57,397 nt of DNA from an uncultured Clostridia bacterium. Its GTDB lineage: Bacteria > Bacillota > Clostridia > Oscillospirales > QAKW01. Position numbers and translations under genes: made by a program. The DNA lies in contig CALGEL010000059.1 of the NCBI GenBank assembly GCA_937881855.1, positions 123,032 through 180,428 of the forward strand, written 5' to 3'. The notes under the pieces were generated by a model. That model saw only the letters and a list, made by a program, of their open reading frames with translations, was not told the DNA's origin and ran no database searches. Of the stretch, positions 5,040-55,280 are shown one piece after another (position 1 is the stretch's first letter; every line of letters starts with the position of its first letter).

Positions 5040-5079
5040 TATATTTTGCTTAGATTGATCGATCAATACAAAATTTAAT

Positions 5080-5168
5080 AATGGGGTGCTGAGTCAAACT
5101 CGGCTGAGAGGGCAAATGTTTTTGCCTAACCCACGAACCTGATGCGGGTAATGCCGACGTAGGAACCA
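5080..5168 (+). promoter_or_regulatory. TPP (THI-box) riboswitch aptamer
   Basis: The sequence ggggtgctgag...ctgagag...aaccc...aacctgatgcgggtaatgccgacgtaggaac matches the THI-box core (CUGAGA ... ACCUGAU..GG.UAAUGCC..CG.AGGGA). It lies directly 5' of a thiT-type gene. Confidence 0.85.
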
Positions 5169-5188
5169 TAAAATTCTTTGATTTATTG

Positions 5189-5227
5189 TGCTCTGCGCGG
5201 ATATTACGTGCAGAGCATTTTATTTTT
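5189..5227 (+). terminator. Riboswitch expression-platform intrinsic terminator
   Basis: Stem tgctctgcgcg (5189-5199) pairs with cgtgcagagca (5207-5217) with one G.U, around a 7-nt loop. It is followed by ttttattttt and lies between the aptamer and the thiT RBS. Confidence 0.75.
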
Positions 5228-5238
5228 GGAGGATGATT

Positions 5239-5895
5239 ATGAAAAGAAAAAATCTACATATGCTTGTCGAGAGTGCAATTATGCTGACTATGGGCGTAGC
5301 GCTCGAATTTATCAGTAAAATTTTTATTCCGGAGCTTCCCTTTGGCGGTCAAATAACAATCGTCAATATGCTACCGATCCTGCTGATATCTTATCGTCAC
5401 GGTGTCAAATGGGGTCTGTTTTCTTCGTTCGTTTATTCTTTGTTGCAGATTGCACTCGGCTTAAAGACGGTCACCGCAGCATTTCAACCCGGTTATTTTG
5501 GCGAGTCGGTGTTGTTGGTTAATGCAATTATTATGTTAGTGTTAGACTATATTATCGCTTACACTGTGTTAGGTTTTGGCGGTATTTTTCGGAATAAGAT
5601 TAAAAATCCTGCAATTTCTTTATCACTTGGCAGTGTTGTTGCGCTCACATTGCGATATGCGGCGCATATTTTGTCGGGTTACATTTTGTTTTCCGGTTGG
5701 GCAGAGTTGTTTTTTACACAAGAAGGCTTTCCTGCGTGGGGGGCAACGCTTGTTGAAAGTGTTGGCTCCAATATGTTAGGATTGATTTACAGCGTCGTCT
5801 ATAATGGTATGTATATGATTCCGGAAATCGTTTTGACGACAATCGCCGCTGTCATAATTTCTAAATTTTCCAAGATAGTCACAAAAGTAAATTAA
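5239..5895 (+). CDS. thiT: ECF-transporter thiamine-specific S component ThiT
   Basis: A six-TM protein directly behind a TPP riboswitch. ATG 5239 follows ggagg at 5228-5232, whereas track start 5188 lies inside the terminator hairpin. Confidence 0.8.
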   Translation: MKRKNLHMLVESAIMLTMGVALEFISKIFIPELPFGGQITIVNMLPILLISYRHGVKWGLFSSFVYSLLQIALGLKTVTAAFQPGYFGESVLLVNAIIMLVLDYIIAYTVLGFGGIFRNKIKNPAISLSLGSVVALTLRYAAHILSGYILFSGWAELFFTQEGFPAWGATLVESVGSNMLGLIYSVVYNGMYMIPEIVLTTIAAVIISKFSKIVTKVN

Positions 5896-5944: not shown

Positions 5945-5973
5945 TTTACAATACTTTATTATTATATTATAAT
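5945..5973 (+). promoter_or_regulatory. Candidate sigma-A promoter for pyrH-frr
   Basis: TTTACA (5945-5950), a 17-nt spacer, then TATAAT (5968-5973), about 35 nt upstream of the pyrH start. Confidence 0.5.
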
Positions 5974-8042: not shown

Positions 8043-8893
8043 AAGAAAACTTCATAAAAAGACTCTGGACGTCTTTGATTATACTTGGCGTCTTTTTGCT
8101 GTTGTTTGCAATCTCCGCATTTTCTCCGTTTTTTGAAATTGCCATTGCTGCATTGATTTGCATTTGTATTTATGAGGCTCTGACCTGTGTCGGATGCGCC
8201 ACAAACAAGAAATTAATATGGCCGAGTTTGATATACGGAATGTCTGTACCGCTCTCTTTTCTGTTTAGAGATTTATTGTATCCCGGTCGCAACCCGTATT
8301 ATGGAGTAATATTCATCTCGTTTATTTATTTGGTCTTTTTATTTATCATATTGATGATCAATTTTGACGAGACTAATTTTGGCGACGCAACGATAACAAT
8401 GTTTATAACGTTTGTTATAACATGCTTTATGAGCAACATTATTTTTATCCGCAGAATTGCCGATAATGGTTTTTTCTTTATGGTATTATGCATCGTTTGC
8501 TCCGCGTGGTGCACCGATATTTTTGCATATCTGACCGGTATTTTGATTGGCAAACGTCGTCCGTTTAAAAAAATCAGCCCCAAAAAATCGGTGGAAGGCT
8601 GTATTGGCGGTTCGTTGTTTTCCATTGGCTTCTTTTTGCTGTTTTGTCTGATCTATCAAAAGATGACAATGGTTCAGGTTGATTGGCTTTTAGCGGCAAT
8701 ATACAGCTTGTTGTGTACAATCATTGGTCAAATCGGCGATTTATCGTTCTCCTACATTAAACGTTCTTATGGTGTCAAAGATTTTGGTAAGATCCTGCCC
8801 GGTCACGGCGGATTTTTGGATCGTATGGATAGCCTTATCTTTATTGCACCTATGTTTTATGCACTAATTAATACAAAAAGTTTTATTGGATAA
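8039..8893 (+). CDS. cdsA: Phosphatidate cytidylyltransferase
   Basis: Polytopic membrane protein with the C-terminal CdsA signature SP.KS.EG..GG ... KR...VKDFG...PGHGG.LDR.DS. Confidence 0.9.
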   Translation: MKENFIKRLWTSLIILGVFLLLFAISAFSPFFEIAIAALICICIYEALTCVGCATNKKLIWPSLIYGMSVPLSFLFRDLLYPGRNPYYGVIFISFIYLVFLFIILMINFDETNFGDATITMFITFVITCFMSNIIFIRRIADNGFFFMVLCIVCSAWCTDIFAYLTGILIGKRRPFKKISPKKSVEGCIGGSLFSIGFFLLFCLIYQKMTMVQVDWLLAAIYSLLCTIIGQIGDLSFSYIKRSYGVKDFGKILPGHGGFLDRMDSLIFIAPMFYALINTKSFIG

Positions 8894-8901
8894 GATATAA
8901 G

Positions 8902-10053
8902 ATGAAGACAATTTCTATTTTAGGCTCAACCGGTTCCATAGGCACACAAACTCTGCAAGTGTGTGAAGATCTCGGTATTCGTGTTGCAGGGGTCAGTGCC
9001 GGAAGAAATATCGAGCTGCTGGAAAAGCAAATTCGCAAGTTCAATATTGGTGTCGCATCGGTATATGACTCTAATGCGGCCGATCTTTTGCGCGAAAGGC
9101 TGTCGGATTTCCCTTGTAAGGTATATTCGGGCGAAGAAGGAAACTGTATTGTCGCATCTTTGCCGCAGGTCTCGATTGTCGTGACTGCGATGATGGGGAT
9201 GATTGGATTAAAACCGACCCTTGCCGCAATTGAAGCGGGTAAAGATATTGCACTTGCGAACAAGGAAACTCTGGTTTGTGCAGGTCAAATTGTCATTCCT
9301 GCCGCCAAGAAAAAAGGCGTAAAGATATTGCCTGTTGATAGCGAACATAGCGCAATTTTTCAATGCTTGCAGGGGGCAGGGGAAAACAAAATTAAAAAAA
9401 TTCTTTTAACCGCATCCGGTGGTCCGTTCTACGGAATGACTTCAAAGGACCTGGAATCGGTCACCTTAGCAGACGCTTTAAAACATCCCAATTGGAGCAT
9501 GGGTTCTAAAATCACAATCGATAGTGCAACATTGATGAATAAAGGCCTTGAATGGATGGAGGCAAAATGGCTTTTTGATTTGAATGACGATCAAATTCAA
9601 GTTGTTGTTCATCGAGAAAGTATTATCCATTCGGCAATAGAGTTTGAAGATGATTCTGTCATCGCTCAAATGGGAGTTCCGTCGATGTATTTACCGATCA
9701 AGTATGCGTTGACATATCCAAAACGAATTTCGAGCGGATCGAATGCATTATCTTTGTTTGGAAAAACATTGAGTTTTGCCGAGCCCGATGAGAATACATT
9801 CCGCTGCTTGAAACTTGCCAAAGAAGCGAGCAAAAATGGCGGTCTTTACCCGACCGTATTGAATGGAGCCAATGAGCAGGCGGTCGATTTGTTTTTGAAA
9901 AATAAGATTAGCTTTAATAAGATTTCATCTTTGGTTGAAAAGGCGCTTTCATATGTTCCCGGCGGCAACGCAACGGATCTGGATTGTGTTCTTTCTGCTG
10001 ATGCAATGGCCAGAGCGTGTGTTCTTAATGAATTTGAGAAGGGTACTTTTTGA
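8902..10053 (+). CDS. dxr: 1-deoxy-D-xylulose-5-phosphate reductoisomerase
   Basis: ILGSTGSIGTQTL, LANKE.LV, PVDSEHSAIFQCL, LTASGGPF and HPNWSMG.KITIDSAT.MNKGLE. Confidence 0.95.
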   Translation: MKTISILGSTGSIGTQTLQVCEDLGIRVAGVSAGRNIELLEKQIRKFNIGVASVYDSNAADLLRERLSDFPCKVYSGEEGNCIVASLPQVSIVVTAMMGMIGLKPTLAAIEAGKDIALANKETLVCAGQIVIPAAKKKGVKILPVDSEHSAIFQCLQGAGENKIKKILLTASGGPFYGMTSKDLESVTLADALKHPNWSMGSKITIDSATLMNKGLEWMEAKWLFDLNDDQIQVVVHRESIIHSAIEFEDDSVIAQMGVPSMYLPIKYALTYPKRISSGSNALSLFGKTLSFAEPDENTFRCLKLAKEASKNGGLYPTVLNGANEQAVDLFLKNKISFNKISSLVEKALSYVPGGNATDLDCVLSADAMARACVLNEFEKGTF

Positions 10054-11096: not shown

Positions 11097-12152
11097 TTGG
11101 CTAGAATTGTTGAGGTCGGAAATCTAAAATTTGGCAGTAAAAAGATCTTTGTTCAGTCGATGTTGAGCACACCTGCCGGTGATCATGATGCGGCAATTCA
11201 GCAAGCAATCTCATTGGAAAAAGCAGGATGCGATGTGCTGCGATTAAGCGTTCCCAATAAGGAATCTGTCGAAACAATTCGTCGATTAAAAAGCGTTGTC
11301 TCGATGCCGATTGTGGCAGACATTCATTTTGATTATCGTCTTGCAATTGCATCGGTGATGGCCGGTGCAGATAAAATCCGAATTAATCCCGGTAATATTG
11401 GCTCAGAAGAAAAGGTGCGAGCCGTTGTCGACGCGTGCAAAGAAAAGAAAATTCCCATCAGAATCGGGGTCAATGGGGGATCGCTGGAACGAGAACTCTT
11501 GGAACGTTATGGCTCGCCAACCCCCGAAGCGCTGGTGGAAAGTGCGATGCGCCATGTTCGTATTTTAGAGCGGTTGGACTTTCACGATATTGTGATTTCC
11601 ATCAAAAGTTCAAATGTTCAGACAATGATCAAAGCGTATCGATTATTATCTAAGGTTTGCGACTATCCGCTTCATCTTGGCGTTACTGAAGCGGGAACCA
11701 AAGACATGGGTGTTGTCAAAAATGCGATCGGTATCGGCAGTCTGCTTGCAGACGGAATTGGATCGACCATTCGCGTATCGCTGACCGCCGATCCTGTGGA
11801 AGAAATTTATGCAGGACGCCGTATTTTGCGTGCTTTGGGCTTATTGGATGGCGCATGCCAACTGATTTCTTGCCCCACATGCGGTCGGACCAAAATCCCC
11901 GTAATCGAAATTGCAGAGCGTGTTGAAAGAGCATTGGAAAATAACACTCTTGGCTTAAAAGTGGCAGTGATGGGATGCGCTGTGAATGGCCCCGGAGAAG
12001 CCCGCGAAGCGGATATTGGCATCGCCGGCGGTGATGGGGAAGGGCTCATCTTTAAGAAGGGAAAAATAATTAGAAAAGTTCATCAAGATGAATTGTTTGA
12101 TGCTTTAATGTTTGAAATAAAAGAAATGTCGAGAAATAATAATGTCGAATAA
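11097..12152 (+). CDS. ispG: 4-hydroxy-3-methylbut-2-enyl-diphosphate synthase
   Basis: VQSM, R.SVP, ADIHFDYRLA, IRINPGN and CPTCGR...MGC.VNGPGE motifs. A TTG start follows ggaggg. Confidence 0.9.
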   Translation: MARIVEVGNLKFGSKKIFVQSMLSTPAGDHDAAIQQAISLEKAGCDVLRLSVPNKESVETIRRLKSVVSMPIVADIHFDYRLAIASVMAGADKIRINPGNIGSEEKVRAVVDACKEKKIPIRIGVNGGSLERELLERYGSPTPEALVESAMRHVRILERLDFHDIVISIKSSNVQTMIKAYRLLSKVCDYPLHLGVTEAGTKDMGVVKNAIGIGSLLADGIGSTIRVSLTADPVEEIYAGRRILRALGLLDGACQLISCPTCGRTKIPVIEIAERVERALENNTLGLKVAVMGCAVNGPGEAREADIGIAGGDGEGLIFKKGKIIRKVHQDELFDALMFEIKEMSRNNNVE

Positions 12153-15100
12153 AAATTTATTGAGTTTTTTTAAGCGATGCACCTTCTCGGAAAGCGAAAT
12201 TTCGTTGTTTGACGGTGCGATCGCCCATAAAGTTGAAGTCAATCAAGAACACCGAATTTTAAAGGCACATGCTGAATTAAAAAAGTATGTGTCTTTTTCC
12301 CACATTCAAGCTCTTGAAGAAAAGGTGAAATCTACATATGCATTAAATAGCGTTGAGATTATCCCGACATTTGAAGGGGTTGCGTTTGAAGCAAATCATT
12401 GGCCGGACATCGTCGAATGTTCCAAAAGAAAAAATGGAGGGGTTAACGGCTTTTTAAACGACTCTACCATTGAAATGAATGACTCCCAATTAACTGTATT
12501 TTTGAAATATGGCGGGTTGGACGTTATAAATGCTTTGGGTGTTGAAAAGACCCTACGCGATGTGTTTGCCGAATGGTATCGTTTGAATATCAATGTGGTG
12601 TTTGACGGATCAATTCAAGTGGATGATTCCAATCGTGTTGAGATTCCCGAACCTGCTGTCGAAGAGTTGCTTCCTCCGCCGGAACCGATTGCACCGCCCC
12701 AACCCAAAGAACCGGTGAAACGGGAGTGGAGACGGCCGGCCGCTGTTGTTCCCATGCCGAACATTCCGTTTTCTCCGACGGAGAATTTGATTTATGGAGA
12801 GCGTATCGGAAAAAACTTTTACGCTATGAATATGGTGAACCAAGTGGATGGAACCGTTTCTGTACTTGGAAACGTCTTTAAGTGTGATAGCCGTACTACC
12901 TGGGATCAAAAAAACGTTCGTTTTTCTGTGTTTGTCACCGATTATACAGGTTCCATTATTCTCAAATTTATGGTACCGGTCGATAAAGCTGAAGAAATAT
13001 CCGGCAAGCTTAAATCCGGCGCTTCTATTGGGGCAACAGGGCAAGTGATGTATGATAAATACGAAGAGGATTATGTAATCAACGCAAAATGCGTGTTTGA
13101 ATCCAAACACTCTGTTCGCCGCGATAATGCGGATGAAAAACGTGTTGAACTTCATTTACATACCAATATGTCTGCGATGGACGCTGTCAACAGCATTGAT
13201 GATTATGTTCGCAGAGCCGCTTATTGGGGCCATAAGGCAATCGCCATTACCGACCACGGAAATTTGCAAAATTATCCTAATGCACAAGCGGCTGCCGAAA
13301 GCTGCGGCATTAAAATGATCTATGGCGTTGAAGGGTATTTGGTGGATGATACTGTTGAAGGATTTGATCCTCAAAATTCTTATAAACTTAAAACAACGCA
13401 GCGATATCATATTATTTTGTTGGTCAAAAATAAAATAGGGCTCAAACATTTATATGAATTGGTTTCAAAATCCAACATTGAGCATTTTTATCGCAGGCCT
13501 TTAATGTATCGGTCTGAGATCGCAAAATTGCGCGAAGGATTGATTATAGGAAGCGCCTGCGAAGCGGGTGAATTGTTCCGCGCAGTAGTCGAAGGAAAGA
13601 ATAATACCGAATTAGAGCAAATTGCTTCCTTCTATGATTATTTGGAGATCCAACCGATTGGCAATAATGAATATATGCTTCGCAACGGAACGGCTTCTTC
13701 CGAAGAAGACCTTCAAAATTTTAATAAAAAGATTGTTCAACTTGGTGAACGATTGTCCAAGCCTGTGGTAGGTACTTGTGATGTTCACTTTCTCGACCCA
13801 AGAGATGAAATTTTTCGCCGCATTTTGATGGCGGGGAATGGATTTAGCGATGCAGATAATCAACCGCCGCTTTATTTCAGAACGACTGATGAAATGCTGC
13901 AAGAGTTTGATTATTTACCCTTTGAGCAAGCTCATAAAATCGTTGTTGATAATCCTGTCGCCATTGCTGATTCTGTGGAAGAATTGATACCGATACCGAA
14001 AGGTATGTATGCACCGGAATTGGAAGGTGCAGAGAAAGAATTATCCGATATCGCGTGGAAAAATGCATATGAGACTTATGGAGATCCGCTGCCCGAAATT
14101 GTTCGCGAACGCTTGGAGCGTGAGCTGAATTCTATCATCGGAAACGGATACGCTGTTATGTATATGAGCGCCCAAAAATTGGTTATGAAATCCAATGAAG
14201 CGGGATACTCTGTTGGTTCTCGTGGATCAGTCGGTTCATCCTTCGCGGCATCTATGGTGGGTATTTCCGAAGTAAACCCGCTGGCTCCGCATTACGTATG
14301 TAAAAAATGTAAATATAGCGAGTTCTTTACCGATGGTTCTGTGGGCTCAGGTTTTGACTTGCCGGATAAGAATTGCCCGAATTGTGGAGAGCCGATGCGC
14401 GCAGACGGACACGACATTCCTTTTGAAACCTTTCTTGGATTTAAAGGGGATAAAGTACCCGATATTGATCTGAATTTTTCCGGCGAATATCAATCAACCG
14501 CTCAAAAATATGTGGAAGAATTGTTTGGCGAAGGCTATGTTTTTAAGGCGGGGACCATTGGAACATTGGCAGATAAAACTGCCTTTGGTTATGTCAAAAA
14601 CTATCTTAAAGAACGTGAATTAAAGTTAAATAAGGCGGAAGAGCAACGTTTGGTGGACGGCTGTGTCGGTGTTAAAAGAACAACCGGTCAGCATCCCGCC
14701 GGAATGGTTGTTATTCCGAAACAATTCAGTGTATACGATTTCTGCCCGATTCAGCATCCTGCTGATGATCAGGAATCGGATATTCTGACAACACACTTTG
14801 ATTTCCACTCCCTTCATGACACTATTTTGAAGCTTGATGTCCTGGGACACGATGTGCCGACGCTTTTAAAGCACCTGGAAGATCTTACAAATTTGAAATT
14901 TGCCGATATTCCGATGAATGATAAAGAGGTATACAGCCTTCTTACCAGCCCAAAAGCACTTGGTGTTACACCGGAAGAAATTGAATGTGAAACAGGTACA
15001 TTGGCATTGCCTGAGATGGGCACCCGATTTGTTCGTCAAATGATGGTGGAAGCCCGACCGAAAAACTTTTCGGAATTGCTTCAGATTTCAGGCTTGTCTC

Positions 15101-15894
15101 ACGGTACAGACGTATGGATTGGTAACGCTCAGGATCTGATCCGCGAGGGTAAGTGCGAAATCAAAGACGTTATCGGTACTCGCGACAACATTATGGTTTA
15201 TCTGATTCATAAAGGATTAGATCCGAGTATGGCTTTTAATATCATGGAAATCGTCCGAAAAGGCAAGGCGAAAAAGCAATTGTCCGACGAGATGATTGCG
15301 GCGATGAAAAGCCATGATCTGCCTGATTGGTATCTGGATAGCTGTCTTAAAATTAAATATATGTTCCCTAAGGCACATGCTGCCGCATATGTTATGGGAG
15401 CAATGCGTTTAGGCTACTATAAAATCCATTACCCCAAAGAATTTTATTGCGCCACCTTTACCGTACGACCCGAAGGGTTCAACGCGGTAGATGTCGCCAA
15501 AGGCGTTGAACATTTAAGAGGGGTTATTCGCGGATTAGAAAATCTTGGAAAAGCCAAAACTGCGAAAGATGATGAAACAATAAACACTTACCAAGTTGTT
15601 ATTGAGGCTATGATGCGCGGAGTTCGTTTCTTACCTGTGGATCTCTATAAATCGCAAGCTACTCGCTTTACCATTGAAGAAGAAGGAATCCGTATGCCCT
15701 TCGGTGTTTTAAGCGGAGTGGGGGAAAATGCGGCATATAATATTGTGGCCGCCAGAGATGAAGGGGATTTCCTTTCTCAAGAAGAATTCCGCGTTCGTGC
15801 CGGAATTTCCAATACAGTTTTAGAGCTTCTGAATAAAGAGGGGGTATTTGGTGATATCCCTGTCAGTGCACAAATCTCACTTTTTGATTTTTAA
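12142..15894 (+). CDS. polC: PolC-type DNA polymerase III alpha subunit, lacking the internal 3'-5' exonuclease domain
   Basis: Collinear with Firmicute PolC: N-domain, OB fold, PHP (HLHTNMSAMDA, ITDHG), the zinc module PHYVCKKCKYSEF...CPNCG, GSRGSVGSSF, DIDLNFSGEYQ, KRTTGQHPAGM, HFDFHSLHD, and the C-terminal QISLFDF clamp motif. At 1250 aa it is about 190 aa shorter than typical PolC, and no DxE/NxxFD/HxxxD exonuclease motifs are present. Confidence 0.9.
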   Translation: MSNKNLLSFFKRCTFSESEISLFDGAIAHKVEVNQEHRILKAHAELKKYVSFSHIQALEEKVKSTYALNSVEIIPTFEGVAFEANHWPDIVECSKRKNGGVNGFLNDSTIEMNDSQLTVFLKYGGLDVINALGVEKTLRDVFAEWYRLNINVVFDGSIQVDDSNRVEIPEPAVEELLPPPEPIAPPQPKEPVKREWRRPAAVVPMPNIPFSPTENLIYGERIGKNFYAMNMVNQVDGTVSVLGNVFKCDSRTTWDQKNVRFSVFVTDYTGSIILKFMVPVDKAEEISGKLKSGASIGATGQVMYDKYEEDYVINAKCVFESKHSVRRDNADEKRVELHLHTNMSAMDAVNSIDDYVRRAAYWGHKAIAITDHGNLQNYPNAQAAAESCGIKMIYGVEGYLVDDTVEGFDPQNSYKLKTTQRYHIILLVKNKIGLKHLYELVSKSNIEHFYRRPLMYRSEIAKLREGLIIGSACEAGELFRAVVEGKNNTELEQIASFYDYLEIQPIGNNEYMLRNGTASSEEDLQNFNKKIVQLGERLSKPVVGTCDVHFLDPRDEIFRRILMAGNGFSDADNQPPLYFRTTDEMLQEFDYLPFEQAHKIVVDNPVAIADSVEELIPIPKGMYAPELEGAEKELSDIAWKNAYETYGDPLPEIVRERLERELNSIIGNGYAVMYMSAQKLVMKSNEAGYSVGSRGSVGSSFAASMVGISEVNPLAPHYVCKKCKYSEFFTDGSVGSGFDLPDKNCPNCGEPMRADGHDIPFETFLGFKGDKVPDIDLNFSGEYQSTAQKYVEELFGEGYVFKAGTIGTLADKTAFGYVKNYLKERELKLNKAEEQRLVDGCVGVKRTTGQHPAGMVVIPKQFSVYDFCPIQHPADDQESDILTTHFDFHSLHDTILKLDVLGHDVPTLLKHLEDLTNLKFADIPMNDKEVYSLLTSPKALGVTPEEIECETGTLALPEMGTRFVRQMMVEARPKNFSELLQISGLSHGTDVWIGNAQDLIREGKCEIKDVIGTRDNIMVYLIHKGLDPSMAFNIMEIVRKGKAKKQLSDEMIAAMKSHDLPDWYLDSCLKIKYMFPKAHAAAYVMGAMRLGYYKIHYPKEFYCATFTVRPEGFNAVDVAKGVEHLRGVIRGLENLGKAKTAKDDETINTYQVVIEAMMRGVRFLPVDLYKSQATRFTIEEEGIRMPFGVLSGVGENAAYNIVAARDEGDFLSQEEFRVRAGISNTVLELLNKEGVFGDIPVSAQISLFDF

Positions 15895-15903
15895 GAGGTA
15901 ATT

Positions 15904-16809
15904 ATGAATTCAATCGATCAATTAATTTCTCGGTTTAATATTCCATACAGAACCGACTGTTCCTTTTCTGATCTTACTACATTTAAGGTGGGCGGAAAAG
16001 TGGATCTTGTTCTGTACCCCGAGACAGAAGAACAATGCATTGCCTTGATGACTTGGTCTAAAAAAGAAAAGGTACCCTTCATTTTCCTTGGGAATGGATC
16101 AAATGTTTTGGGCTCTGATAATGGTTATCGGGGGATTATCGTCAAAACCGATCGTTTGAATAAGATTGAATTGCTTGAAAATGGAATTCTTGCTGTTGGA
16201 GCCGGTGTTCGAGGTGTAAAGGTTTCTTCCTTTGCAGCGAACAATGGCCTTTCGGGCATTGAATTTTTGCACGGGATACCCGGAACGATTGGTGGAGCGA
16301 TTTTTATGAACGCCGGCGCATACGATTGCTCGATCGATCAGGTCCTATTGCAGACTCGATACCTGGATGATGAAGGTAATGTGCATATTCTCAAAAGAGA
16401 AGATCATAATTTTGGATACCGAAAAAGCTTTTTTATGGAACATCCAAATTATCTGATTCTTGATGTTATGCTTCAATTAAAACCCGGAAATAAGGCGGAA
16501 ATCGTCGCTCTTATTAACGATCTTCAACAACGCAGAAGAGAGAAACAACCATTGGAATTTCCAAGTGCAGGAAGCACATTTAAAAGACCGGAAGGCCACT
16601 TTGCCGGTAAATTGATTCAGGATGCGGGTTTAGGCGGATATTCCATTGGCGGAGCGCAGGTTAGCAGCAAACATTGCGGATTTATCATTAATTCCAATAA
16701 TGCAACAAGTAGCGATATTCATGCTTTAATTCAACACGTTCAGGATGTTGTATGTAAGCAATTTGATGTAAAATTAGAGTGTGAAATTCGTTTTTTAGGC
16801 GAAGAATAA
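15904..16809 (+). CDS. murB: UDP-N-acetylenolpyruvoylglucosamine reductase
   Basis: TTFKVGG, LGNGSN, GIPGTIGGA..MNAGAY, PSAGS.FK.P and GGAQVS.KH..FI.N motifs. Confidence 0.9.
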   Translation: MNSIDQLISRFNIPYRTDCSFSDLTTFKVGGKVDLVLYPETEEQCIALMTWSKKEKVPFIFLGNGSNVLGSDNGYRGIIVKTDRLNKIELLENGILAVGAGVRGVKVSSFAANNGLSGIEFLHGIPGTIGGAIFMNAGAYDCSIDQVLLQTRYLDDEGNVHILKREDHNFGYRKSFFMEHPNYLILDVMLQLKPGNKAEIVALINDLQQRRREKQPLEFPSAGSTFKRPEGHFAGKLIQDAGLGGYSIGGAQVSSKHCGFIINSNNATSSDIHALIQHVQDVVCKQFDVKLECEIRFLGEE

Positions 16810-16828
16810 ACAAATAGGAAGTGACTTT

Positions 16829-17713
16829 ATGTCGTTTAGTTTCGATGTCAAAGAAGAACTGTGTAAAGTTCGGGAGAAAGATAATATTTGTAAAGCAGCC
16901 GAGCTCTATGGCATGGTTTTATTTGGTCAGACGGTTGAAGAAGATCAACTGAAAATTTCCACAGAAAATGTTTTGGTTATTAATCATCTGCAATCGCTCA
17001 CAACTGAATTATTAGGTTTGTTTTTTGAAATGAACGAAATTGGTGTGACCTTTAATGCAACCCTGCACGGCTCCAATTTATCAAAGCTCTATCAAATGCT
17101 TCGAATGAAAGAAGATGCGGGGATTTCACTTGAAATTAAAGGTCATCTACTTCATTCTAAGGATCGATTTTTCGCTTTTTTGCGCGGAGCTGTCCTTTCC
17201 GGCGGATATCTTAGTGATCCTTTAAGCGGATATCATTTTGAACTGGTGACACCCTATTATTCAGTCGCCAAATCTCTGCTCGAATTAATGAATAGTCAAG
17301 GGATAACTTGCAAAATGGTGGTGCGCAGATCCAATCACGTGATCTATATTAAAGATAGCCAGCAAATTTATGATCTTTTATATCGTTTGGGTGCGCGTTC
17401 ATCGGCTTTTGAATTGATGGATGTTAAAATCGAAAAAGAAACAAATAATAATAACAATAGGGTCGATAATTGCGCAGCATATAATATGGATAAGGCTTTA
17501 AACAAGGCGGTCGAGCAAATTCGGGCGATCGAAACAATTCAAGAAAAAAATGGTCTTTCGACTCTTCCCGAAGACTTATTATACGTTGCCATATTACGAA
17601 AAGAAAATCCGACCGCCAGCTTGACTGAACTATCAACACTCAGCAACGGTCGTATCAGCAGAGCGGGGCTGAGCAGAAAACTCAATAAAATTGTCGAATT
17701 TGCCAAAAAATAA
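16829..17713 (+). CDS. whiA: DNA-binding sporulation/division regulator WhiA
   Basis: MSFSFDVKEEL N-terminus, a degenerate LAGLIDADG-like middle, and a C-terminal HTH (LSTLSNGRISRAGLSRKLNKI). Confidence 0.85.
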   Translation: MSFSFDVKEELCKVREKDNICKAAELYGMVLFGQTVEEDQLKISTENVLVINHLQSLTTELLGLFFEMNEIGVTFNATLHGSNLSKLYQMLRMKEDAGISLEIKGHLLHSKDRFFAFLRGAVLSGGYLSDPLSGYHFELVTPYYSVAKSLLELMNSQGITCKMVVRRSNHVIYIKDSQQIYDLLYRLGARSSAFELMDVKIEKETNNNNNRVDNCAAYNMDKALNKAVEQIRAIETIQEKNGLSTLPEDLLYVAILRKENPTASLTELSTLSNGRISRAGLSRKLNKIVEFAKK

Positions 17714-17724
17714 AGGAACCGAAA

Positions 17725-20700
17725 ATGACTGATTTCGTACACTTACATTTGCATACAGAATATAGCCTTCTGGATGGCGCCTGCCGTATAACCGAAGCGG
17801 TGGCAAAAGCGAAGGCGTTGGGTCAGTCTGCCCTTGCCATCACCGACCATGGTGTTTTATATGGTGCTGTTGACTTTTATAAAACGTGCAAAAAAGAAGG
17901 AATTAAGCCGATCATCGGTTGCGAAATTTATATGGCTCCCCACGGGAGAAAAGACAAACAATATAACCTTGACGGAAAATATTCCCACCTGATTTTATTA
18001 GCAAAAAATAAGGTTGGATACCATAATCTCGTAAAAATCGTATCACGCGGGTTCACCGAAGGCTTTTATTTCAAACCGCGCGCAGATTTTGAACTTTTAG
18101 AAAAATACAGCGAAGGATTAATCTGCCTTTCGGGCTGTATTGCAGGCTCCGTTCAGCAAAAATTATTGAACAACGACTATGAAGGCGCAAAGCAAGAAGC
18201 GTTGCGCTATAAATCTATTTTTGGTGATGATTACTATCTTGAATTGCAAAACCACGGTTATAAAGAAGATGCCGTCATTATTCCGGGCCTTTCAAGAATC
18301 CACCAAGAGACCGGGATATCAATGGTCGCCACCAATGATGCCCATTATATTAATAAAGAGGATTCCTATACCCAAAAGGTGTTAATGTGTATCCAAATGA
18401 ATAAAACATTAAACGATGAGGATGCTCCGGGATTTGATACTGATGAGTTTTATCTCAAAAGCGGGGAAGAAATGGCCCAATTATTTGAGCATTATCCGGA
18501 TGCAGTTTTAAACACCGTTAAGATAGCAAGAGAATGTAATTATGATTTTGAATTTGGCGAATTTCATTTGCCGAAATTTCAATTACCCAATGGCGAAGAC
18601 GATAGTTTTGAATATCTGAAAAAACTTTGTTATAATGGCCTTTCCGAACGTTATAATATTATTGATGATCAACTAAAAAATCGCTTAAATTACGAGCTTG
18701 ACACTATCCAAAATATGGGATATGTCGATTACTTCTTAATTGTCAGCGACTTTATTTCTTATGCCAAAAACAATCGTATTCCTGTTGGCCCCGGAAGAGG
18801 GTCGGCTGCCGGTTCTTTGGTTGCATACTGCCTTCGTATAACCGATATTGATCCGATAGAATATGATCTGCTTTTTGAACGCTTTTTAAATCCCGAGCGT
18901 GTAACAATGCCGGATATTGACATCGATTTTTGCTATGAACGGCGCGGAGAAGTCATTGATTATGTTGTCGAAAAATACGGTGCAGATAATGTCGCTCAAA
19001 TTGTCACTTTTGGTACAATGGCTGCCAAACAGGCGGTAAGAGACGTCGGGCGCGCTATGGGAATGCCTTATGGTGAAGTCGATGCTGTCGCTAAAATGAT
19101 TCCGTTTCGGCTCGGTATCACGTTAAAAGATGCAATTAATGAAGTTCCCACCCTAAAAGAATTGTACGAGACTAATCAGTCTGTCCGCAAATTGCTGGAT
19201 CAAGCTTTGCGTTTGGAAGGGTTCCCGCGTCATAATTCTACCCATGCCGCAGGTGTTGTCATTACTGAAAAAGAGGTCAGCGATTTTGTTCCTGTCGCTG
19301 TCAATGGGGATGCTTCGGTAACCCAATTCTCTATGACGACTTTGGAAGAACTGGGCTTATTAAAAATGGATTTTCTTGGTCTGCGAAATCTGACCATTAT
19401 TCGTGACACAGAAAAATTAATCTCTCAAATCGAGCCCGACTTTAAAGTCGATGATATTCCTTTGAATGATGCGGCTACCTTTAAGACCTTGGCAAGCGGC
19501 AATACAAGCGGTGTTTTCCAAATGGAAAGCCCGGGAATGCGCCAAGTTCTTATGCGGTTAAAGCCTTCGGAATTTGAGGATATTATCGCGGTCATTTCTT
19601 TGTATCGTCCCGGGCCAATGGAGTCTATTCCAACCTACATTGCTAATAAAAATAACCCTGAGAAGATCAAATATTTGACGCCGGAATTGGAGCCTATTTT
19701 AAAGGTCACTTACGGTTGTATCGTCTATCAAGAGCAGGTTATGCAAATCGTTCGTTCTCTTGCCGGTTATTCCTATGCGCGCGCTGATTTGGTGCGCAGA
19801 GCAATGAGCAAGAAAAAAAGCGATGTTATGGAGCGTGAAAGAGAAATCTTTTTGTATGGATCGGTAGATGAAGAAGGGAATATTTTGATCCCGGGCGCGC
19901 TCAGAAACGGAATTAAAAAGGATATCGCAAACAAAATTTTTGATCAAATGATCGATTTTGCAAAATATGCATTCAATAAATCCCATGCCACCTGCTATGC
20001 TAAGGTAGCCTATCAAACTGCCTATTTAAAAACGCATTATCAAAAGCAATATTTGGCTGCATTGATGACGAGCGTGATTGGCTCTACCGAAAAAACAGCG
20101 GAATATATTGAAGAATGCAGACGCTTAAATATCAATGTTTTACCGCCCCACATTAATAAGAGTTATTCCAGATTTCAAGCAACAGAAGACGGCATTGTGT
20201 TCGGCTTGCTTGCCATAAAAAATGTGGGTGTAAAAATGGTTCACGATATTGTGACTGAGCGAGAACAAAATGGGGAATATAAGGACTTTGTCGATTTTTG
20301 TTCGCGAATTTCGGATAAAGACATCAATTCCCGTGCCATCGACAGTATGATTAAATGCGGTGTATTTGACTGTTTTAATTTCAGCCGACGCCATCTTGCA
20401 ATGATTCATGAGCCGCTTTTTAATAGCATCATAGCGGACAAAAAGGATCAAATTGATGGGCAGATCGGGTTGTTTTCGATGATAACTGAACCGGTTGATG
20501 CCGGAGCGCGTTATTTTAAAGAACCGCAGAAAGAATATGAAAAGTCCGTTAAACTTTCCTTTGAAAAAGAGTTGATGGGGATCCATCTTTCCGACAATCC
20601 CTTTGAACCATATCGACACATTTATCAACGCAAGGATATAACAAATTTTAGAGAACTCTTATCGGATGACACGAGCGACGGAGTTCAGGTTTGGATCTTT

Positions 20701-21171
20701 GCTCAAATTGATAACTATAAGTCGGTCAAAACAAAGACCGGATCTGAGATGGGATATTTGACGCTTTCTGATATTTCCGGTACAATGGAGGGAATCTTAT
20801 TTCCGAAGGTTTACGCTTGTTTTCGAAATGGACTGAGTAAAAACAGCATGGTTTTTATCCGTGGCAAAATTCAAAAAGATGAAACTCGCGGAACAAAACT
20901 TTTAATTGATGAAATTCGATACCCGAGTGAAAAAGAATTAAAAGAAAAGACAAAACGGTTATATTTAAAACTTGTGTCCAAAGATTCTCATCAATACGAA
21001 CAAGTCATAAAGATCCTTTCGGAATATTCCGGGATGCATGAGTGTATTTTATATTTTGCTGATACACAAAAAAGTGTCTCCACTTTAAATCGCTTTGGTA
21101 TTGATATCAACGATCAACTTTTAAGTAGGTTAAGAATCATACTGGATGAAGAGAATATTGTGATAAAATAA
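17725..21171 (+). CDS. dnaE: DnaE-type DNA polymerase III alpha subunit
   Basis: FVHLHLHTEYSLLDGA, ITDHG.LYG, GPGRGSAAGSLVAY.L.IT.IDP, PDIDIDF, HAAGVVI, FNKSH..CYA, plus a C-terminal OB fold; 1148 aa. Confidence 0.95.
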   Translation: MTDFVHLHLHTEYSLLDGACRITEAVAKAKALGQSALAITDHGVLYGAVDFYKTCKKEGIKPIIGCEIYMAPHGRKDKQYNLDGKYSHLILLAKNKVGYHNLVKIVSRGFTEGFYFKPRADFELLEKYSEGLICLSGCIAGSVQQKLLNNDYEGAKQEALRYKSIFGDDYYLELQNHGYKEDAVIIPGLSRIHQETGISMVATNDAHYINKEDSYTQKVLMCIQMNKTLNDEDAPGFDTDEFYLKSGEEMAQLFEHYPDAVLNTVKIARECNYDFEFGEFHLPKFQLPNGEDDSFEYLKKLCYNGLSERYNIIDDQLKNRLNYELDTIQNMGYVDYFLIVSDFISYAKNNRIPVGPGRGSAAGSLVAYCLRITDIDPIEYDLLFERFLNPERVTMPDIDIDFCYERRGEVIDYVVEKYGADNVAQIVTFGTMAAKQAVRDVGRAMGMPYGEVDAVAKMIPFRLGITLKDAINEVPTLKELYETNQSVRKLLDQALRLEGFPRHNSTHAAGVVITEKEVSDFVPVAVNGDASVTQFSMTTLEELGLLKMDFLGLRNLTIIRDTEKLISQIEPDFKVDDIPLNDAATFKTLASGNTSGVFQMESPGMRQVLMRLKPSEFEDIIAVISLYRPGPMESIPTYIANKNNPEKIKYLTPELEPILKVTYGCIVYQEQVMQIVRSLAGYSYARADLVRRAMSKKKSDVMEREREIFLYGSVDEEGNILIPGALRNGIKKDIANKIFDQMIDFAKYAFNKSHATCYAKVAYQTAYLKTHYQKQYLAALMTSVIGSTEKTAEYIEECRRLNINVLPPHINKSYSRFQATEDGIVFGLLAIKNVGVKMVHDIVTEREQNGEYKDFVDFCSRISDKDINSRAIDSMIKCGVFDCFNFSRRHLAMIHEPLFNSIIADKKDQIDGQIGLFSMITEPVDAGARYFKEPQKEYEKSVKLSFEKELMGIHLSDNPFEPYRHIYQRKDITNFRELLSDDTSDGVQVWIFAQIDNYKSVKTKTGSEMGYLTLSDISGTMEGILFPKVYACFRNGLSKNSMVFIRGKIQKDETRGTKLLIDEIRYPSEKELKEKTKRLYLKLVSKDSHQYEQVIKILSEYSGMHECILYFADTQKSVSTLNRFGIDINDQLLSRLRIILDEENIVIK

Positions 21172-22317: not shown

Positions 22318-22404
22318 GCCGGTGTGTTGGAATTGGCAGACGAGACGGACTCAAAATCCGTTGTCAGTAATGACGTGTGGGTTCAAGTCCCACCACCGGC
22401 ACCA
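22318..22404 (+). tRNA. tRNA-Leu (anticodon CAA), class II with a long variable arm and encoded CCA
   Basis: Acceptor stem GCCGGTG pairs with CACCGGC and is followed by ACCA. The anticodon stem acgga/tccgt encloses loop CTCAAAA, giving anticodon CAA. A long variable arm (tgtcagtaatgacgt) and a T-arm GGTTCAAGTCC are present. Confidence 0.9.
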
Positions 22405-22438
22405 TCCCTCAAGAAGTTTCTTGAGGGATTATTTTTTT
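22405..22438 (+). terminator. Intrinsic terminator after tRNA-Leu, abutting the dapA stop
   Basis: Stem tccctcaag pairs with cttgaggga across a 6-nt loop and is followed by ttattttttt. Confidence 0.8.
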
Positions 22439-26731: not shown

Positions 26732-26748
26732 TTATTGAGGTGATCATA

Positions 26749-27336
26749 ATGGGCCGTTTAATGTTGAAGATTAAAAATGATTTTGTCAATGAAATTCCGT
26801 TAATTCGCATTTATTCTATATTATATTTAGCGGGGATTTTTATAGGTACGATCGGTGTCATACTTTCCTTTGATGCGCTTTCCAATATACCTTCAGCCAT
26901 CTTTACTACTGCGGATTCTTTGGAATTTGGCGGGATATTTTTTCAGCATTTTTGTTTTTTTCTGTCGCTGTACTTATTGGGAATGTCTGTAATTGGGCTT
27001 CCGCTTCTGCCGTTTTTTCCATTATATAAAGGTTTTTCGATCGGAGTAATCCTATCAATAGCCTTGATTTCAAATGGACTGCGCTGCTTCTTTATAAGTG
27101 TCCTGACATTTGTTTTTCAAAATATTTTTACTTTAATATTGGGATATTTTATTTGCATTTCCTCTGCCCGTCTGTCAATCTCTTTTTTTGAATTATTAAA
27201 GGGAAGGGGGAAACATTCTGCGTTATATCACGAGTTTTTAAACCATACATACCGTTTTTTGATTATTACGCCAATTCTGTTGCTTTTGAGTTATTTGCAA
27301 TGGAAGATCGTTCCGATCATCATTAAATTTTATTAG
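26749..27336 (+). CDS. spoIIM: Stage II sporulation protein M
   Basis: A polytopic protein of about 195 aa with the SpoIIM-like pattern (FLSLYLLGMSVIGLPLLPFFPLYKGFSIGV), immediately upstream of xerD as in many Clostridia. ATG 26749 follows gaggtg. Confidence 0.7.
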   Translation: MGRLMLKIKNDFVNEIPLIRIYSILYLAGIFIGTIGVILSFDALSNIPSAIFTTADSLEFGGIFFQHFCFFLSLYLLGMSVIGLPLLPFFPLYKGFSIGVILSIALISNGLRCFFISVLTFVFQNIFTLILGYFICISSARLSISFFELLKGRGKHSALYHEFLNHTYRFLIITPILLLLSYLQWKIVPIIIKFY

Positions 27337-27353: not shown

Positions 27354-28256
27354 GTGGAAAAAACTTATATGAATTTTTGCAATTTTCTCATGACTAAAAA
27401 GAAGACATCCGCCAATACTCTCGCTTCCTATCAGCGTGATCTTCGCCAACTGATTCAATATCTGGAAGGAAAGCAAGTTTCTTCTTGGAGCGAAGTTTCA
27501 GATGAATTGTTAAATACCTATTTTTCCTTTTTGAAAAGTTGCAACAAAAGCGACGCTACCATCTCCCGTTCGATGTCCACAATGCGTTGTTTTTTCAAAT
27601 ACTTGGTTTCCAAAAAAATCATATCTGCCAGCCCGATGGTCGGCATCAGAGGATTGAAAAGCGAAACCAAATTACCCGAAGTTCTTTCCGGCGAGGAAGT
27701 AGAACAACTCTTATGGCAACCCGATACTCAAACCGTCAAGGGTATGAGAGATAAGGCAATGCTGGAAGTATTATATGCTTCGGGAATTCGTGTCACCGAG
27801 TTGCTTTCTTTAAAACTATCCGATGTCAATCTCGATGTTGGATATTTAATGATGAACAAATATGAAGAGAATGAACGCATCATCCCCATTTATGCGTTAG
27901 CTGTTCAGTCGCTGAGAAATTATATGAACCAAGCCAGGCCCCAGTTGGTTGATAACAATAAAGAACAAACGCTTTTTGTCAATACCAATGGACAAGCTAT
28001 GACTCGTCAAGGGTTTTGGAAACTTGTAAGGCAATATACTTTGTCGGCAAATATTGCCAAAGATATCACTCCCAAGATATTGCGCCATTCTTTCGCTACG
28101 CATTTACTTGAAAATGGAGCAGATATTAATATGGTGAAAGATATGATGGGCCATTCTTCGTTGAATTCGACAAGAGTTTATGCGAAGCTACTTAAAGCTA
28201 AATATCTTTCAACCTATGAAAATTGTCACCCAAGAGCTGTAAAGGTAGGCGAATAA
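27354..28256 (+). CDS. xerD: Site-specific tyrosine recombinase XerD
   Basis: 300 aa with N-domain SANTLASYQRDL..L and catalytic residues in GIRVTELLSL, LRHSFATHLLENGADI..V..MMGHSSL..T.VY. A GTG start follows aggagggg. Confidence 0.85.
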   Translation: MEKTYMNFCNFLMTKKKTSANTLASYQRDLRQLIQYLEGKQVSSWSEVSDELLNTYFSFLKSCNKSDATISRSMSTMRCFFKYLVSKKIISASPMVGIRGLKSETKLPEVLSGEEVEQLLWQPDTQTVKGMRDKAMLEVLYASGIRVTELLSLKLSDVNLDVGYLMMNKYEENERIIPIYALAVQSLRNYMNQARPQLVDNNKEQTLFVNTNGQAMTRQGFWKLVRQYTLSANIAKDITPKILRHSFATHLLENGADINMVKDMMGHSSLNSTRVYAKLLKAKYLSTYENCHPRAVKVGE

Positions 28257-32846: not shown

Positions 32847-32882
32847 AAAAATAAGAGTTCCAAACGGAACTCTTATTTTTTA
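32845..32882. terminator. Bidirectional intrinsic terminator between ychF and spoIIE
   Basis: Stem aataagagttcc pairs with ggaactcttatt, with an A run upstream and a T run downstream. Confidence 0.85.
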
Positions 32883-35015
32883 TGTGTTTGATTTAAGGAA
32901 ACGACAGATCATAACCGTAACATCATCGTCGTGTTTATAAGAAAAAGATCTCATAATATTTTTTGCAAAAGTTTGTGAATCTTCATGCTTACATTCCATC
33001 AACAACTCTGACTCTTCGTCTGTAATTGCCAATCCGTCAGAAATCATAACAAGATAATCATCCTCGGAAAATGAAATTCGTTTATGTATAATTTGTTCCT
33101 CCTCCGACAGCCCCATCGGAATACCGCCGCCATCAATTTTGATGCACGCATCTTTTTGTACCAAATAGCTATCATAAGCCCCACTCTTATAAAAATCCGC
33201 CATACCCGTCTCTAAATTCAATATGCATAAATCCAATGTGGAAAATGTTTCCTTTGGATTAAACCGTATTACCGAGCGCAAGATATTTAAAGTATTTGAT
33301 ATGCTCATTCCGCCTTGAAGAAGTCGTTTTAACACCGATACTGTCAGTTCACTATATGCACCGGCTTGCCGCCCGCATCCCATTCCATCGGATAAAATCA
33401 GGCAATATCGTTTTTTGTCGATAGAAAAACCTATGGCTTGGTCTCCGCAGATGGTCTCTTGATCCTTTGCTCTGCAAAGGGCAGCGCACTGAATCATAAA
33501 CGGATTCGTTTCTTTAAATATAATTTTATTTTGTTCACAAATTAATGTAATGGGGGATGAAATCTGATTAGAAAGGATCGCTCTGATTCGCTGTTTATTT
33601 TCATTTATTTGGCAATCCTTAATAGAAATAACACCATTTATAAAATTACGACGATCATTTGATATATGAACACTTTTGACAACAATACCGTCCTTTTTAA
33701 ATGCATCCATAATATTTTGTTCCAACTCAACGTTGTTTGCCGAGACTATGCTCTCATCATCCATGGCAGACTCAATTCGCTTGCTTATATAATTTAGTTG
33801 ATCAACCATCTCGCCAAGTTCATTTTTATTTTTTGTTTTAAGTATTCGTTGGATTGCACATTCCATTGCATTTGGCTTGATACAAAAGGGAAGAGCTTCT
33901 GAAACCGAAGGGATTTTTTCATTCACTTTATATTGTTCATCAAAATTATTTAGTATCGCTTTGAGTTCGCTTGAATTTTTTCCATAGCAATGTTTGGCGT
34001 GATCGCAAAATGCCCCACATTCTTTTTTACATCGTTGATATAACCCTTCCGTTTTTGATTTTTTATCTGATAACTGACGCACAGGAATGTATGATGATAA
34101 GATTTTTCTTATTTTCGCTTTTGGAAGCGGCAGCACTAATAAAGAAGCAATCACCGGCTCTAAAAAATACCGATAATTCCACGGAAACCAACCCAAAAAT
34201 ATAAGGCTCGAATAATATACAATAATAAACGAGGTCACACTGAACTTATTGGAAAACGATGAAAACAAACAGCCGGCCAATGTTGCAGTAACAACAGCAA
34301 TAAAAATCGCCTCTCCGCCGTTTGAAACGGCAGATAATATAATTCCTATACTTGATCCCAAAACGACGATATGGCTGATTCTAAGGCAATATAACGATGA
34401 TAAAATAAGGAATATACCCAACATTCTCGCAACGCTTAGATTTAAAAGATAAACATTATGTAAGGAACAAAAAATTAAAACCAAAGTGATCGAGGCGGCG
34501 ATAATTTCTTTGGAAGTAAGATAACAACTCTTTTTAAATGCGCTCGCCGCATAATTGACAAAATAAACACAACAGCAAATCAAGACGGATTCTCCAACAA
34601 GTATTAAAACATTATAGAGCGTCAGTTGACCCACCAATAAGAATAAAAATCCGCAAACAAAACAGCACACCGAAGTGAAAACCGCTGTATCATACTTAAT
34701 TAGTTTAAATGATTTTTGAAACAACGCATATATAACATAGATCATCGTCAAAGCGGTAATATATTTAAAAGATGACAACTCAAACGGAGTCAGCAATGTA
34801 CCGACAATTCCTCCCATATAGCAAGCCGTCGGTACCAATCCGATATTATAACTCGTCGAAAAAAGAATCAACGAGAACGGCGAAAAGTTTTCAAAAAGAA
34901 CACATTGCGATAAGAAAAAATTCAAGCCGAAAGAAATTATCAACCTTAAAACGTAATAAAATACAGATATCATTTTATTTTGGAAATGATCCATTTTACT
35001 TTGAACTTTAATCAT
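32880..35015 (-). CDS. spoIIE: Stage II sporulation protein E (membrane-anchored PP2C phosphatase)
   Basis: The N-terminal ~320 aa are polytopic. The C-terminal PP2C domain reads GDQAIGF...LSDGMGCG..A...S ... ST.DL..L.L..G....KSGA ... VMISDG. ATG follows aaggaga. Confidence 0.85.
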   Translation of the reverse strand: MIKVQSKMDHFQNKMISVFYYVLRLIISFGLNFFLSQCVLFENFSPFSLILFSTSYNIGLVPTACYMGGIVGTLLTPFELSSFKYITALTMIYVIYALFQKSFKLIKYDTAVFTSVCCFVCGFLFLLVGQLTLYNVLILVGESVLICCCVYFVNYAASAFKKSCYLTSKEIIAASITLVLIFCSLHNVYLLNLSVARMLGIFLILSSLYCLRISHIVVLGSSIGIILSAVSNGGEAIFIAVVTATLAGCLFSSFSNKFSVTSFIIVYYSSLIFLGWFPWNYRYFLEPVIASLLVLPLPKAKIRKILSSYIPVRQLSDKKSKTEGLYQRCKKECGAFCDHAKHCYGKNSSELKAILNNFDEQYKVNEKIPSVSEALPFCIKPNAMECAIQRILKTKNKNELGEMVDQLNYISKRIESAMDDESIVSANNVELEQNIMDAFKKDGIVVKSVHISNDRRNFINGVISIKDCQINENKQRIRAILSNQISSPITLICEQNKIIFKETNPFMIQCAALCRAKDQETICGDQAIGFSIDKKRYCLILSDGMGCGRQAGAYSELTVSVLKRLLQGGMSISNTLNILRSVIRFNPKETFSTLDLCILNLETGMADFYKSGAYDSYLVQKDACIKIDGGGIPMGLSEEEQIIHKRISFSEDDYLVMISDGLAITDEESELLMECKHEDSQTFAKNIMRSFSYKHDDDVTVMICRFLKSNT

Positions 35016-41994: not shown

Positions 41995-42031
41995 AAAATG
42001 AGCGGTAATTCCTTTGAATTACCGCTCATTT
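41993..42031. terminator. Terminator shared by the aspartokinase (+) and sigK (-)
   Basis: A 14-bp stem (aatgagcggtaatt / aattaccgctcatt) with an A6 run on the + side, which reads as a T6 run for sigK. The sigK stop codon lies within the stem. Confidence 0.8.
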
Positions 42032-42711: not shown

Positions 42712-42826
42712 TCTTCTCACCTCAATTTGAAGTCTATGCAAAATCCCGCTTGTCTGTTGACGAAAGAAATGAAAATAACTTGCAGAAACATAAAACATAA
42801 TATATAATTTAAGTTAGGTGATAAAA

Positions 42827-48437: not shown

Positions 48438-48458
48438 AATGATTCTCCTTTTAATCAA

Positions 48459-51001: not shown

Positions 51002-51015
51002 ATTAACAGTCCTCC

Positions 51016-52311: not shown

Positions 52312-52313
52312 TC

Positions 52314-54637: not shown

Positions 54638-54641
54638 ATTA

Positions 54642-55250: not shown

Positions 55251-55280
55251 ATTCTATTCTCCTTTATTTGTTAATTTCAT

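Follow-up and report, generated by a model that had tools for sequence, protein, structure and literature searches.

What becomes of proofreading when a replicative polymerase of the PolC type has no exonuclease domain? The question is raised by a 57,397-nucleotide stretch of DNA from an uncultured, gut-type Clostridia bacterium (contig CALGEL010000059.1; referred to here as the window). An initial annotation, made from the letters alone, had noticed in it a polC gene whose product is collinear with canonical PolC from the N-domain to the C-terminal QISLFDF, is 1250 amino acids (aa) long, and is without the DnaQ-type 3'-5' exonuclease domain (Exo) that usually interrupts the PHP domain. Analysis of the gene, its relatives and its surroundings bears this out: it is virtually certain that the gene is an intact PolC orthologue from which Exo has been cleanly lost, and that it is a member of the known class of Exo-less PolCs.

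Collinearity is borne out by the open reading frame (ORF), by the NCBIfam PolC equivalog NF001688 and by Pfam. The match to NF001688 (1506 bits; cutoff 873) is split in two stretches, and the second – aa 413-1249, corresponding to profile positions 606-1445 – begins so far along the profile that approximately 185 profile positions are skipped. TIGR01405 is matched with 1369.6 bits (cutoff 1043). Pfam recognises PHP (aa 336-498), DNA_pol3_alpha, DNA_pol3_finger and HHH_6, together with weak matches to DNA_pol3_a_NI (aa 14-66), NII (aa 86-156) and an OB fold (aa 256-316). The order specific to PolC is kept, with the N-terminal domain and OB fold placed before PHP and the clamp motif placed at the extreme C-terminus (..QISLFDF); QISLF matches the clamp-motif consensus QL[S/D]LF of Timinskas et al. 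(Nucleic Acids Research (NAR) 2014; PMC3919608). The inserted DEDDh exonuclease that is the hallmark of PolC is missing: Pfam found no match to RNase_T/DnaQ (PF00929) in the protein.

Alignment with 115 full-length relatives (MAFFT) places the gap between D403 (IYGVEGYLVDD) and R421 (RYHIILLVKN). The flanking PHP segments had been described as joined by about 20 residues at ~13345-13415; the alignment resolves these to a connector of 17 residues at 13351-13401 and, as had been said, the frame runs through the junction with neither frameshift nor stop. Invariant in 116/116 aligned PolCs are D774 and D776 (PDIDLNF) and D899, which we take, from established knowledge of C-family polymerases, to be the catalytic Asp triad, as well as the Cys4 cluster (C720/C723/C745/C748) and Q1244. 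The usual metal-ligand positions of the PHP domain, judged by eye to be all occupied (HLH, MDA, TDH, VEG, YHI, SAC and CDVH), prove to be nine ligands that read HHDHEHCDH in order (residues are given in the table). This nonad is invariant in all 116 sequences – 41/41 Exo-less and 75/75 Exo-containing – and is the criterion for an 'active' PHP in a further survey (PMC12926913).

Could the short PolC nevertheless be an assembly artefact, a decaying pseudogene, or the carrier of a highly divergent Exo fold? The one thing that points in this direction is its unusual length, and the chance that any of the three holds is negligible. Collapse of the assembly, a possibility entertained in the initial annotation, is ruled out: more than 25 clusters, drawn from many independent ENA, NCBI and Logan assemblies, show the identical junction, and purifying selection is strong. 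The survey of PolC lengths that the annotation had proposed gave 25 related clusters, 68-91% identical, all with the same junction and a length of 1244-1284 aa. Among the GTDB species representatives, L001-L003 and L036 have both the architecture and the gene order of the window. Against L001, which is 94% identical, the ratio of nonsynonymous to synonymous substitution rates (dN/dS, Nei-Gojobori) is 0.026 over the whole of polC and, taken separately, 0.017 and 0.015 in its PHP and polymerase regions; these ratios are only approximate because dS is ~1.1 and thus near saturation. The uninterrupted frame and the ratio of 0.026 against this orthologue rule out a pseudogene.

Nor has Exo been retained in divergent form. 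Apart from the absence of a Pfam RNase_T match, a hidden Markov model (HMM) of Exo, trained on 75 such domains from the nearest Exo-containing relatives, gave a best E of 0.64 when run on the six-frame translation of the window; the connector, at 17 aa, is too short for any fold. An AlphaFold2 model covering aa 229-1250 (mean predicted local distance difference test score (pLDDT) 87; predicted template-modelling score (pTM) 0.77) renders the connector, aa 404-420, as a short loop with a pLDDT of 85-91, and the OB fold as a beta-barrel. Foldseek comparison of the model gave template-modelling (TM) scores of 0.89/0.91 against 3f2b and a query-normalised score (TMq) of 0.90 against full-length Enterococcus faecium PolC, 9qpc. 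The best sequence match in the PDB is also 3f2b, the PolC of Geobacillus kaustophilus, which was crystallised with its exonuclease domain removed by engineering: the two proteins align as a single stretch across the junction. Taken together, these results show that the PolC of the window is a resident, orthologous and functional replicase of this uncultured bacterium.

Exo is absent from 41 of the 116 aligned sequences (the PolC of the window and 40 of its 115 full-length relatives). In a tree built from the shared columns by neighbour-joining, these make up four distinct clades, every one of them placed within Exo-containing PolCs. Bootstrap analysis (100 replicates, 45 taxa, 1133 columns) gave 100% for the window clade and 98% for this clade together with its Exo-containing sister group, 100% for the grouping of P0059 with a different Exo-containing group, 100% for the third Exo-less clade and 98% for the fourth. 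A single origin of all Exo-less PolCs is rejected: as one group they were recovered in 0/100 bootstraps (0%). Judged from these sequences, Exo was lost independently at least four times among the relatives.

The anatomy of the junction bears on the manner of loss. Exo-containing sister lineages (L053, L054) have an identical locus, including murB-(rapZ)-whiA-dnaE-pfkA, and the Exo block is therefore the only difference. Moreover, the C-terminal half of the connector is homologous to the connector that follows Exo in the sister clade with Exo (xFDYK..(R)YH): the basal Exo-less P0024 has GFDYRKAP-RYH where the Exo-containing P0052 has SFDYKDAP-RYH. Since half of the connector is recognisable as the ancestral post-Exo connector, the deletion amounts to a clean excision of the domain.

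A wider sample allows loss of Exo to be set against the state of the PHP site. PolC aa 229-1250 was used as the query against representatives of 50%-identity clusters (E <= 1e-30); of the best 150 of 2254 representatives, 125 are full length. Exo is present in 94, cleanly lost from 22, and replaced by an unrecognisable insert in nine, the losses being in line with the proportion reported in PMC3919608. The nonad is intact in 57, 21 and nine of these, respectively – that is, in 30/31 representatives without a recognisable Exo versus 57/94 with one (Fisher p = 7e-5, not corrected for phylogeny). In the nine (P0195, P0193, P0190, P0181, P0151, P0144, P0171, P0136 and P0203) an insert of 115-260 aa occupies the position of Exo. 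The seven that were scanned gave no Pfam match to RNase_T at E <= 0.01, and the DEDDh motifs are gone: P0195, for example, has HIGTTG in place of DIETTG. By their sequences these inserts look like decayed Exo domains, and as such they qualify a remark in PMC12926913, according to which it is not the DnaQ proofreader that becomes inactivated in Pol III alpha subunits.

Exo-less PolC lineages have been formally described, a matter on which the initial annotation could not pronounce. According to Timinskas, Balvociute, Timinskas and Venclovas (PMC3919608), 6% of PolCs are without Exo; these are confined to Clostridia and Negativicutes, are all paired with DnaE1, and make up 16% of the PolCs in PolC + DnaE1 systems. 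The Exo-less PolCs of that survey share with the PolC of the window the order N-terminal domain (NTD)-OB-PHP-Pol3-(HhH)2 without the Exo insertion, the taxonomic class, the partnership with a DnaE1 whose PHP site is perfect, and a conserved PHP metal site of their own. The genomes nearest to the window are metagenome-assembled genomes (MAGs) bearing the label 'Eubacteriales bacterium', 'Clostridia bacterium' or 'Oscillospiraceae', and are thus clostridial, a placement with which the sporulation genes of the window agree. The PolC of the window has every distinguishing property of the subclass and therefore belongs to a known kind, although its lineage is a new member and not a listed one, because it is made up of uncultured MAGs, most of which were assembled long after the survey. 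The finding is incremental, given that the Exo-less architecture has been in the literature since 2013. What is added here is a count of the independent losses, the anatomy of the junction as seen at a syntenic locus, the association of loss with an intact PHP, and the degenerate inserts; of these, the number of independent losses, the junction and degenerate inserts receive no discussion in the accessible text of the survey.

Comparison with better-known enzymes places the protein more closely. With canonical PolC (B. subtilis; E. faecium 9QPC) it shares all non-Exo domains, the catalytic residues, the clamp motif and a locus downstream of dxr-rseP; it is without the ~200-aa DEDDh exonuclease that canonical PolC carries between PHP strands 3 and 4. 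In Bacilli, canonical PolC is paired with DnaE3 and its PHP site is often degenerate (PMC12926913). PolCs of Geobacillus (3f2b) and S. aureus from which Exo was removed by engineering, at essentially the same boundaries, are active polymerases that fold and polymerise fast, and excision is thus tolerated; however, those constructs have an artificial linker and are also without the N-terminal domain, whereas the PolC of the window is natural, fixed and selected, and has kept its N-terminal domain. A likeness of another kind is offered by the DnaE1 enzymes of Thermus and M. tuberculosis, which proofread through PHP: as in the PolC of the window, the nine-residue PHP site is complete and there is no integral DnaQ. 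The analogy has its limit in that theirs is a measured PHP exonuclease activity in a DnaE1, while the present enzyme is a PolC in which such an activity is putative.

A DnaE1 is also the second replicase of this organism. The dnaE gene downstream of polC matches NF005298 with 1625 bits (cutoff 1260), and its product has an internal clamp motif (QIGLF) and a complete PHP nonad (H8, H10, D17, H42, E67, H88, C138, D206, H208), all nine ligands of which align, residue by residue, to those of Taq DnaE1 (2hpi) and M. tuberculosis DnaE1 (5lew). The organism carries the clostridial PolC + DnaE1 replication system, with DnaE1 and not DnaE3. The two genes for C-family replicases share a co-directional cluster, polC-murB-(rapZ)-whiA-dnaE-pfkA, in the window and in L001-L003, L036 and L051-L054; rapZ stands between murB and whiA in L051 and L053 and is absent from the window. 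That the juxtaposition of polC and dnaE is an adaptation to loss of Exo was considered and rejected: the Exo-containing L053 and L054 have this order too, and the other Exo-less clades are without it.

Is there a separate exonuclease in the neighbourhood? Pfam, applied to 50 of the 56 picked ORFs of the window, found no exonuclease; dxr, rseP, ispG, murB, whiA and ORF 8883..9263 were covered only by the six-frame scan with the Exo HMM, which found nothing DnaQ-like in the 57 kb, whichever the frame. The neighbours of polC are, as had been stated, not DnaQ genes: they are ispG and murB. Among relatives, the +-10 kb flanks of Exo-less polC in L001-L003, L036, L047, L049, L050, L051 and L052 hold no DnaQ. 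A stand-alone DnaQ adjoining polC is therefore rejected for the window and for these flanks. The window does contain two genes of general relevance to fidelity, a mutY-like adenine glycosylase gene (HhH-GPD + NUDIX_4; 35144-36199) and a radA/sms-like gene (37538-38890), neither of which encodes an exonuclease.

What, then, might do the proofreading? We lean towards an explanation that combines the Exo-less architecture with proofreading by PHP. As to the mechanism itself, that PHP is the proofreader of the Exo-less PolC is the best supported of those considered and, being inferred, stands at about even chances. In an ancestor of the clade, the DnaQ-type 3'-5' exonuclease lying between strands of the PHP barrel was excised precisely at the domain boundaries; a short loop now closes the PHP domain, and the remaining PolC modules are all intact. 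Polymerisation would proceed as in canonical PolC, and the trinuclear metal site of PHP would act as a 3'-5' exonuclease, as it does in the DnaE1 of Thermus and Mycobacterium: PolC could thus proofread in cis, perhaps with support from the PHP of the DnaE1 encoded alongside, which is just as intact. Clostridia usually have three 'active' proofreaders (PMC12926913); the DnaQ insert, as one of three that are apparently active, would be redundant, and redundancy would explain why Exo has been lost repeatedly. Extended to Clostridia with PolC + DnaE1 at large, the proposal reads that Exo may be dispensable, PHP the working cis-proofreader, and the Exo insert in recurrent evolutionary decay, a generalisation that we put forward tentatively, at somewhat less than even chances.

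A number of observations weigh against PHP as the proofreader. The nonad is equally intact in the Exo-containing sister clades (75/75), and hence does not show that PHP has taken over. Phylogeny confounds the correlation between loss of Exo and an intact PHP, since the sole sources of Exo-less PolCs, the Clostridia and Negativicutes, are groups in which PHP is as a rule intact. One clean Exo-less representative, the PolC-like P0224 (1178 aa), has ruined PHP ligands (HRSLENSDQ), although this may be an extra, non-replicative copy, by analogy with the Thermotogae case of Timinskas et al. No convergent substitutions mark the four Exo-less clades as against Exo-containing PolCs: the candidates for compensatory change common to all four came down to two noisy columns. 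We found in the literature no measurement of exonuclease activity for the PHP domain of any PolC. Finally, the search for DnaQ reached only 57 kb here and +-10 kb in relatives, while bacterial proteomes average >3 stand-alone DnaQ homologues (PMC12926913).

This last point is the starting place for proofreading in trans, in which a stand-alone DnaQ/epsilon-like exonuclease from elsewhere in the genome would dock on PolC or on DnaE1. In E. coli, epsilon docks onto the PHP domain of alpha. Stand-alone homologues are common, the DNA searched is a small part of the genome, and clostridial DnaE1 has kept a conserved putative epsilon-binding surface (PMC3919608). Against this, there is no DnaQ-like sequence in the window and none within +-10 kb in five other Exo-less loci from four independent clades, none of the independent losses has a co-localised dedicated partner, and the conservative survey of PMC12926913, in its accessible text, reports no canonical DnaQ subunits for Clostridia. 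We consider proofreading in trans unlikely. A different solution is that PolC does without proofreading altogether: DnaE1 would carry out the bulk of high-fidelity synthesis, PolC would be reduced or specialised, and fidelity would be secured by DnaE1 and post-replicative repair. Timinskas et al. (PMC3919608) raise this possibility, note that some Clostridia have DnaE1 only, and call all Exo-less PolCs clostridial; the DnaE1 encoded here, which belongs to the same gene cluster and has an intact PHP site and clamp motif, shows all the properties of a self-sufficient replicase. But the PolC of the window is under purifying selection as expected of an essential replicase (dN/dS 0.015-0.017 across the PHP and polymerase regions), it has kept a near-ideal clamp motif and all catalytic residues, and PHP ligands that are invariant across four Exo-less clades are not expected if their role is merely structural. 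The argument from invariance is tempered by E. coli, where a structural role for PHP is reportedly documented. On balance a PolC that does not proofread appears distinctly improbable.

If PHP does proofread in cis, Exo-less PolCs would be the first PolC-type replicases to proofread through this domain. As of 2014, according to PMC3919608, experimental characterisation of a PolC + DnaE1 system was still lacking, and we found no later characterisation in the literature, nor any experimental test of the proofreading mechanism in an Exo-less PolC; the matter bears on the division of labour and on fidelity in PolC + DnaE1 replisomes. Natural Exo-less PolCs provide a ready-made test of whether the PHP domain of PolC can proofread, and because sister lineages have the same locus with and without Exo, and the replicase genes adjoin, matched expression constructs should be straightforward to make. 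PolC is, moreover, the target of antibiotics (the ibezapolstat class), and its domain variation among gut Clostridia is thus of some practical relevance.

Parts of polC and adjoining genes, with positions in the window.
Feature	Position	Strand	Remarks
polC	12142..15894	+	ATG start; 1250 aa; naturally without the DnaQ-type Exo domain
PolC N-terminal domains and OB fold	12142..13116	+	aa 1-325; weak Pfam matches
PHP, N-terminal part	13138..13350	+	aa 333-403; ligands H338, H340, D347, H372, E397
Connector TVEGFDPQNSYKLKTTQ	13351..13401	+	aa 404-420; 17 residues; replaces an Exo of ~185 aa
PHP, C-terminal part	13402..14001	+	aa 421-620; ligands H423, C473, D547, H549
Polymerase core (palm, thumb, fingers) and tandem HhH	14002..15870	+	Pfam
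C-terminal beta-clamp binding motif QISLF	15871..15885	+	aa 1244-1248 of 1250
ispG (GcpE), upstream flank	11097..12152	+	stop overlaps polC start by 11 nt (12142-12152); not an exonuclease
murB and whiA, between polC and dnaE	15904..17713	+	neither is an exonuclease
dnaE, DnaE1-type	17725..21171	+	1148 aa; 1.8 kb downstream of polC; NCBIfam NF005298

The identity of ispG is based on the GcpE Pfam match of the syntenic genes in related loci and on orthology by tblastn, and that of murB and whiA on MurB_C and WhiA Pfam matches of the syntenic genes in related loci. Upstream of polC are ylmE-sepF-yggT-ylmH-divIVA-lspA-rluD, a thiamine pyrophosphate (TPP) riboswitch with thiT, and pyrH-frr-uppS-cdsA-dxr-rseP-ispG; downstream are murB-whiA-dnaE-pfkA. 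These are the classical surroundings of polC in Firmicutes. The order pyrH-frr-uppS-cdsA-dxr-rseP-ispG-polC is common to Exo-containing relatives, and the gene occupies the orthologous chromosomal position. Between 5945 and 22429 genes are tightly packed, and a consensus scan found no strong intrinsic terminator between the two ends, which are marked by a promoter-like site ahead of pyrH (5945-5973) and a terminator after tRNA-Leu (22404-22429). The stretch may be one long transcription unit or a series of translationally coupled genes.

The TPP riboswitch (5072-5182; 64.9 bits against Rfam RF00059) immediately precedes a gene for a ThiT/YuaJ-type thiamine transporter (5188-5895), and there is a terminator-like hairpin at 5188-5218. 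Further along, GC content falls to 0.31-0.40 in the region ~26000-48000. GC skew is positive to ~26 kb, then approximately zero, and negative after ~45 kb, while gene orientation changes from + to -; two tyrosine recombinase (XerC/D-like) genes are located at 27354-28256 and 44104-45087. The region could be terminus-like, or the strand bias could simply follow gene direction; a B. subtilis-type dif site near the change in skew was sought, with no match within three mismatches. SpoIIM-like (26740-27336), SpoIIE-domain (32880-35015) and sporulation-type sigma factor (42019-42798) genes are also present, and indicate a spore-forming lineage of Clostridia. The far end of the window (48012-56434, minus strand) is occupied by an operon for a V/A-type ATPase (subunits K/c, I, D, B, A and others), after which come madM and madL, the genes of a malonate/sodium symporter.

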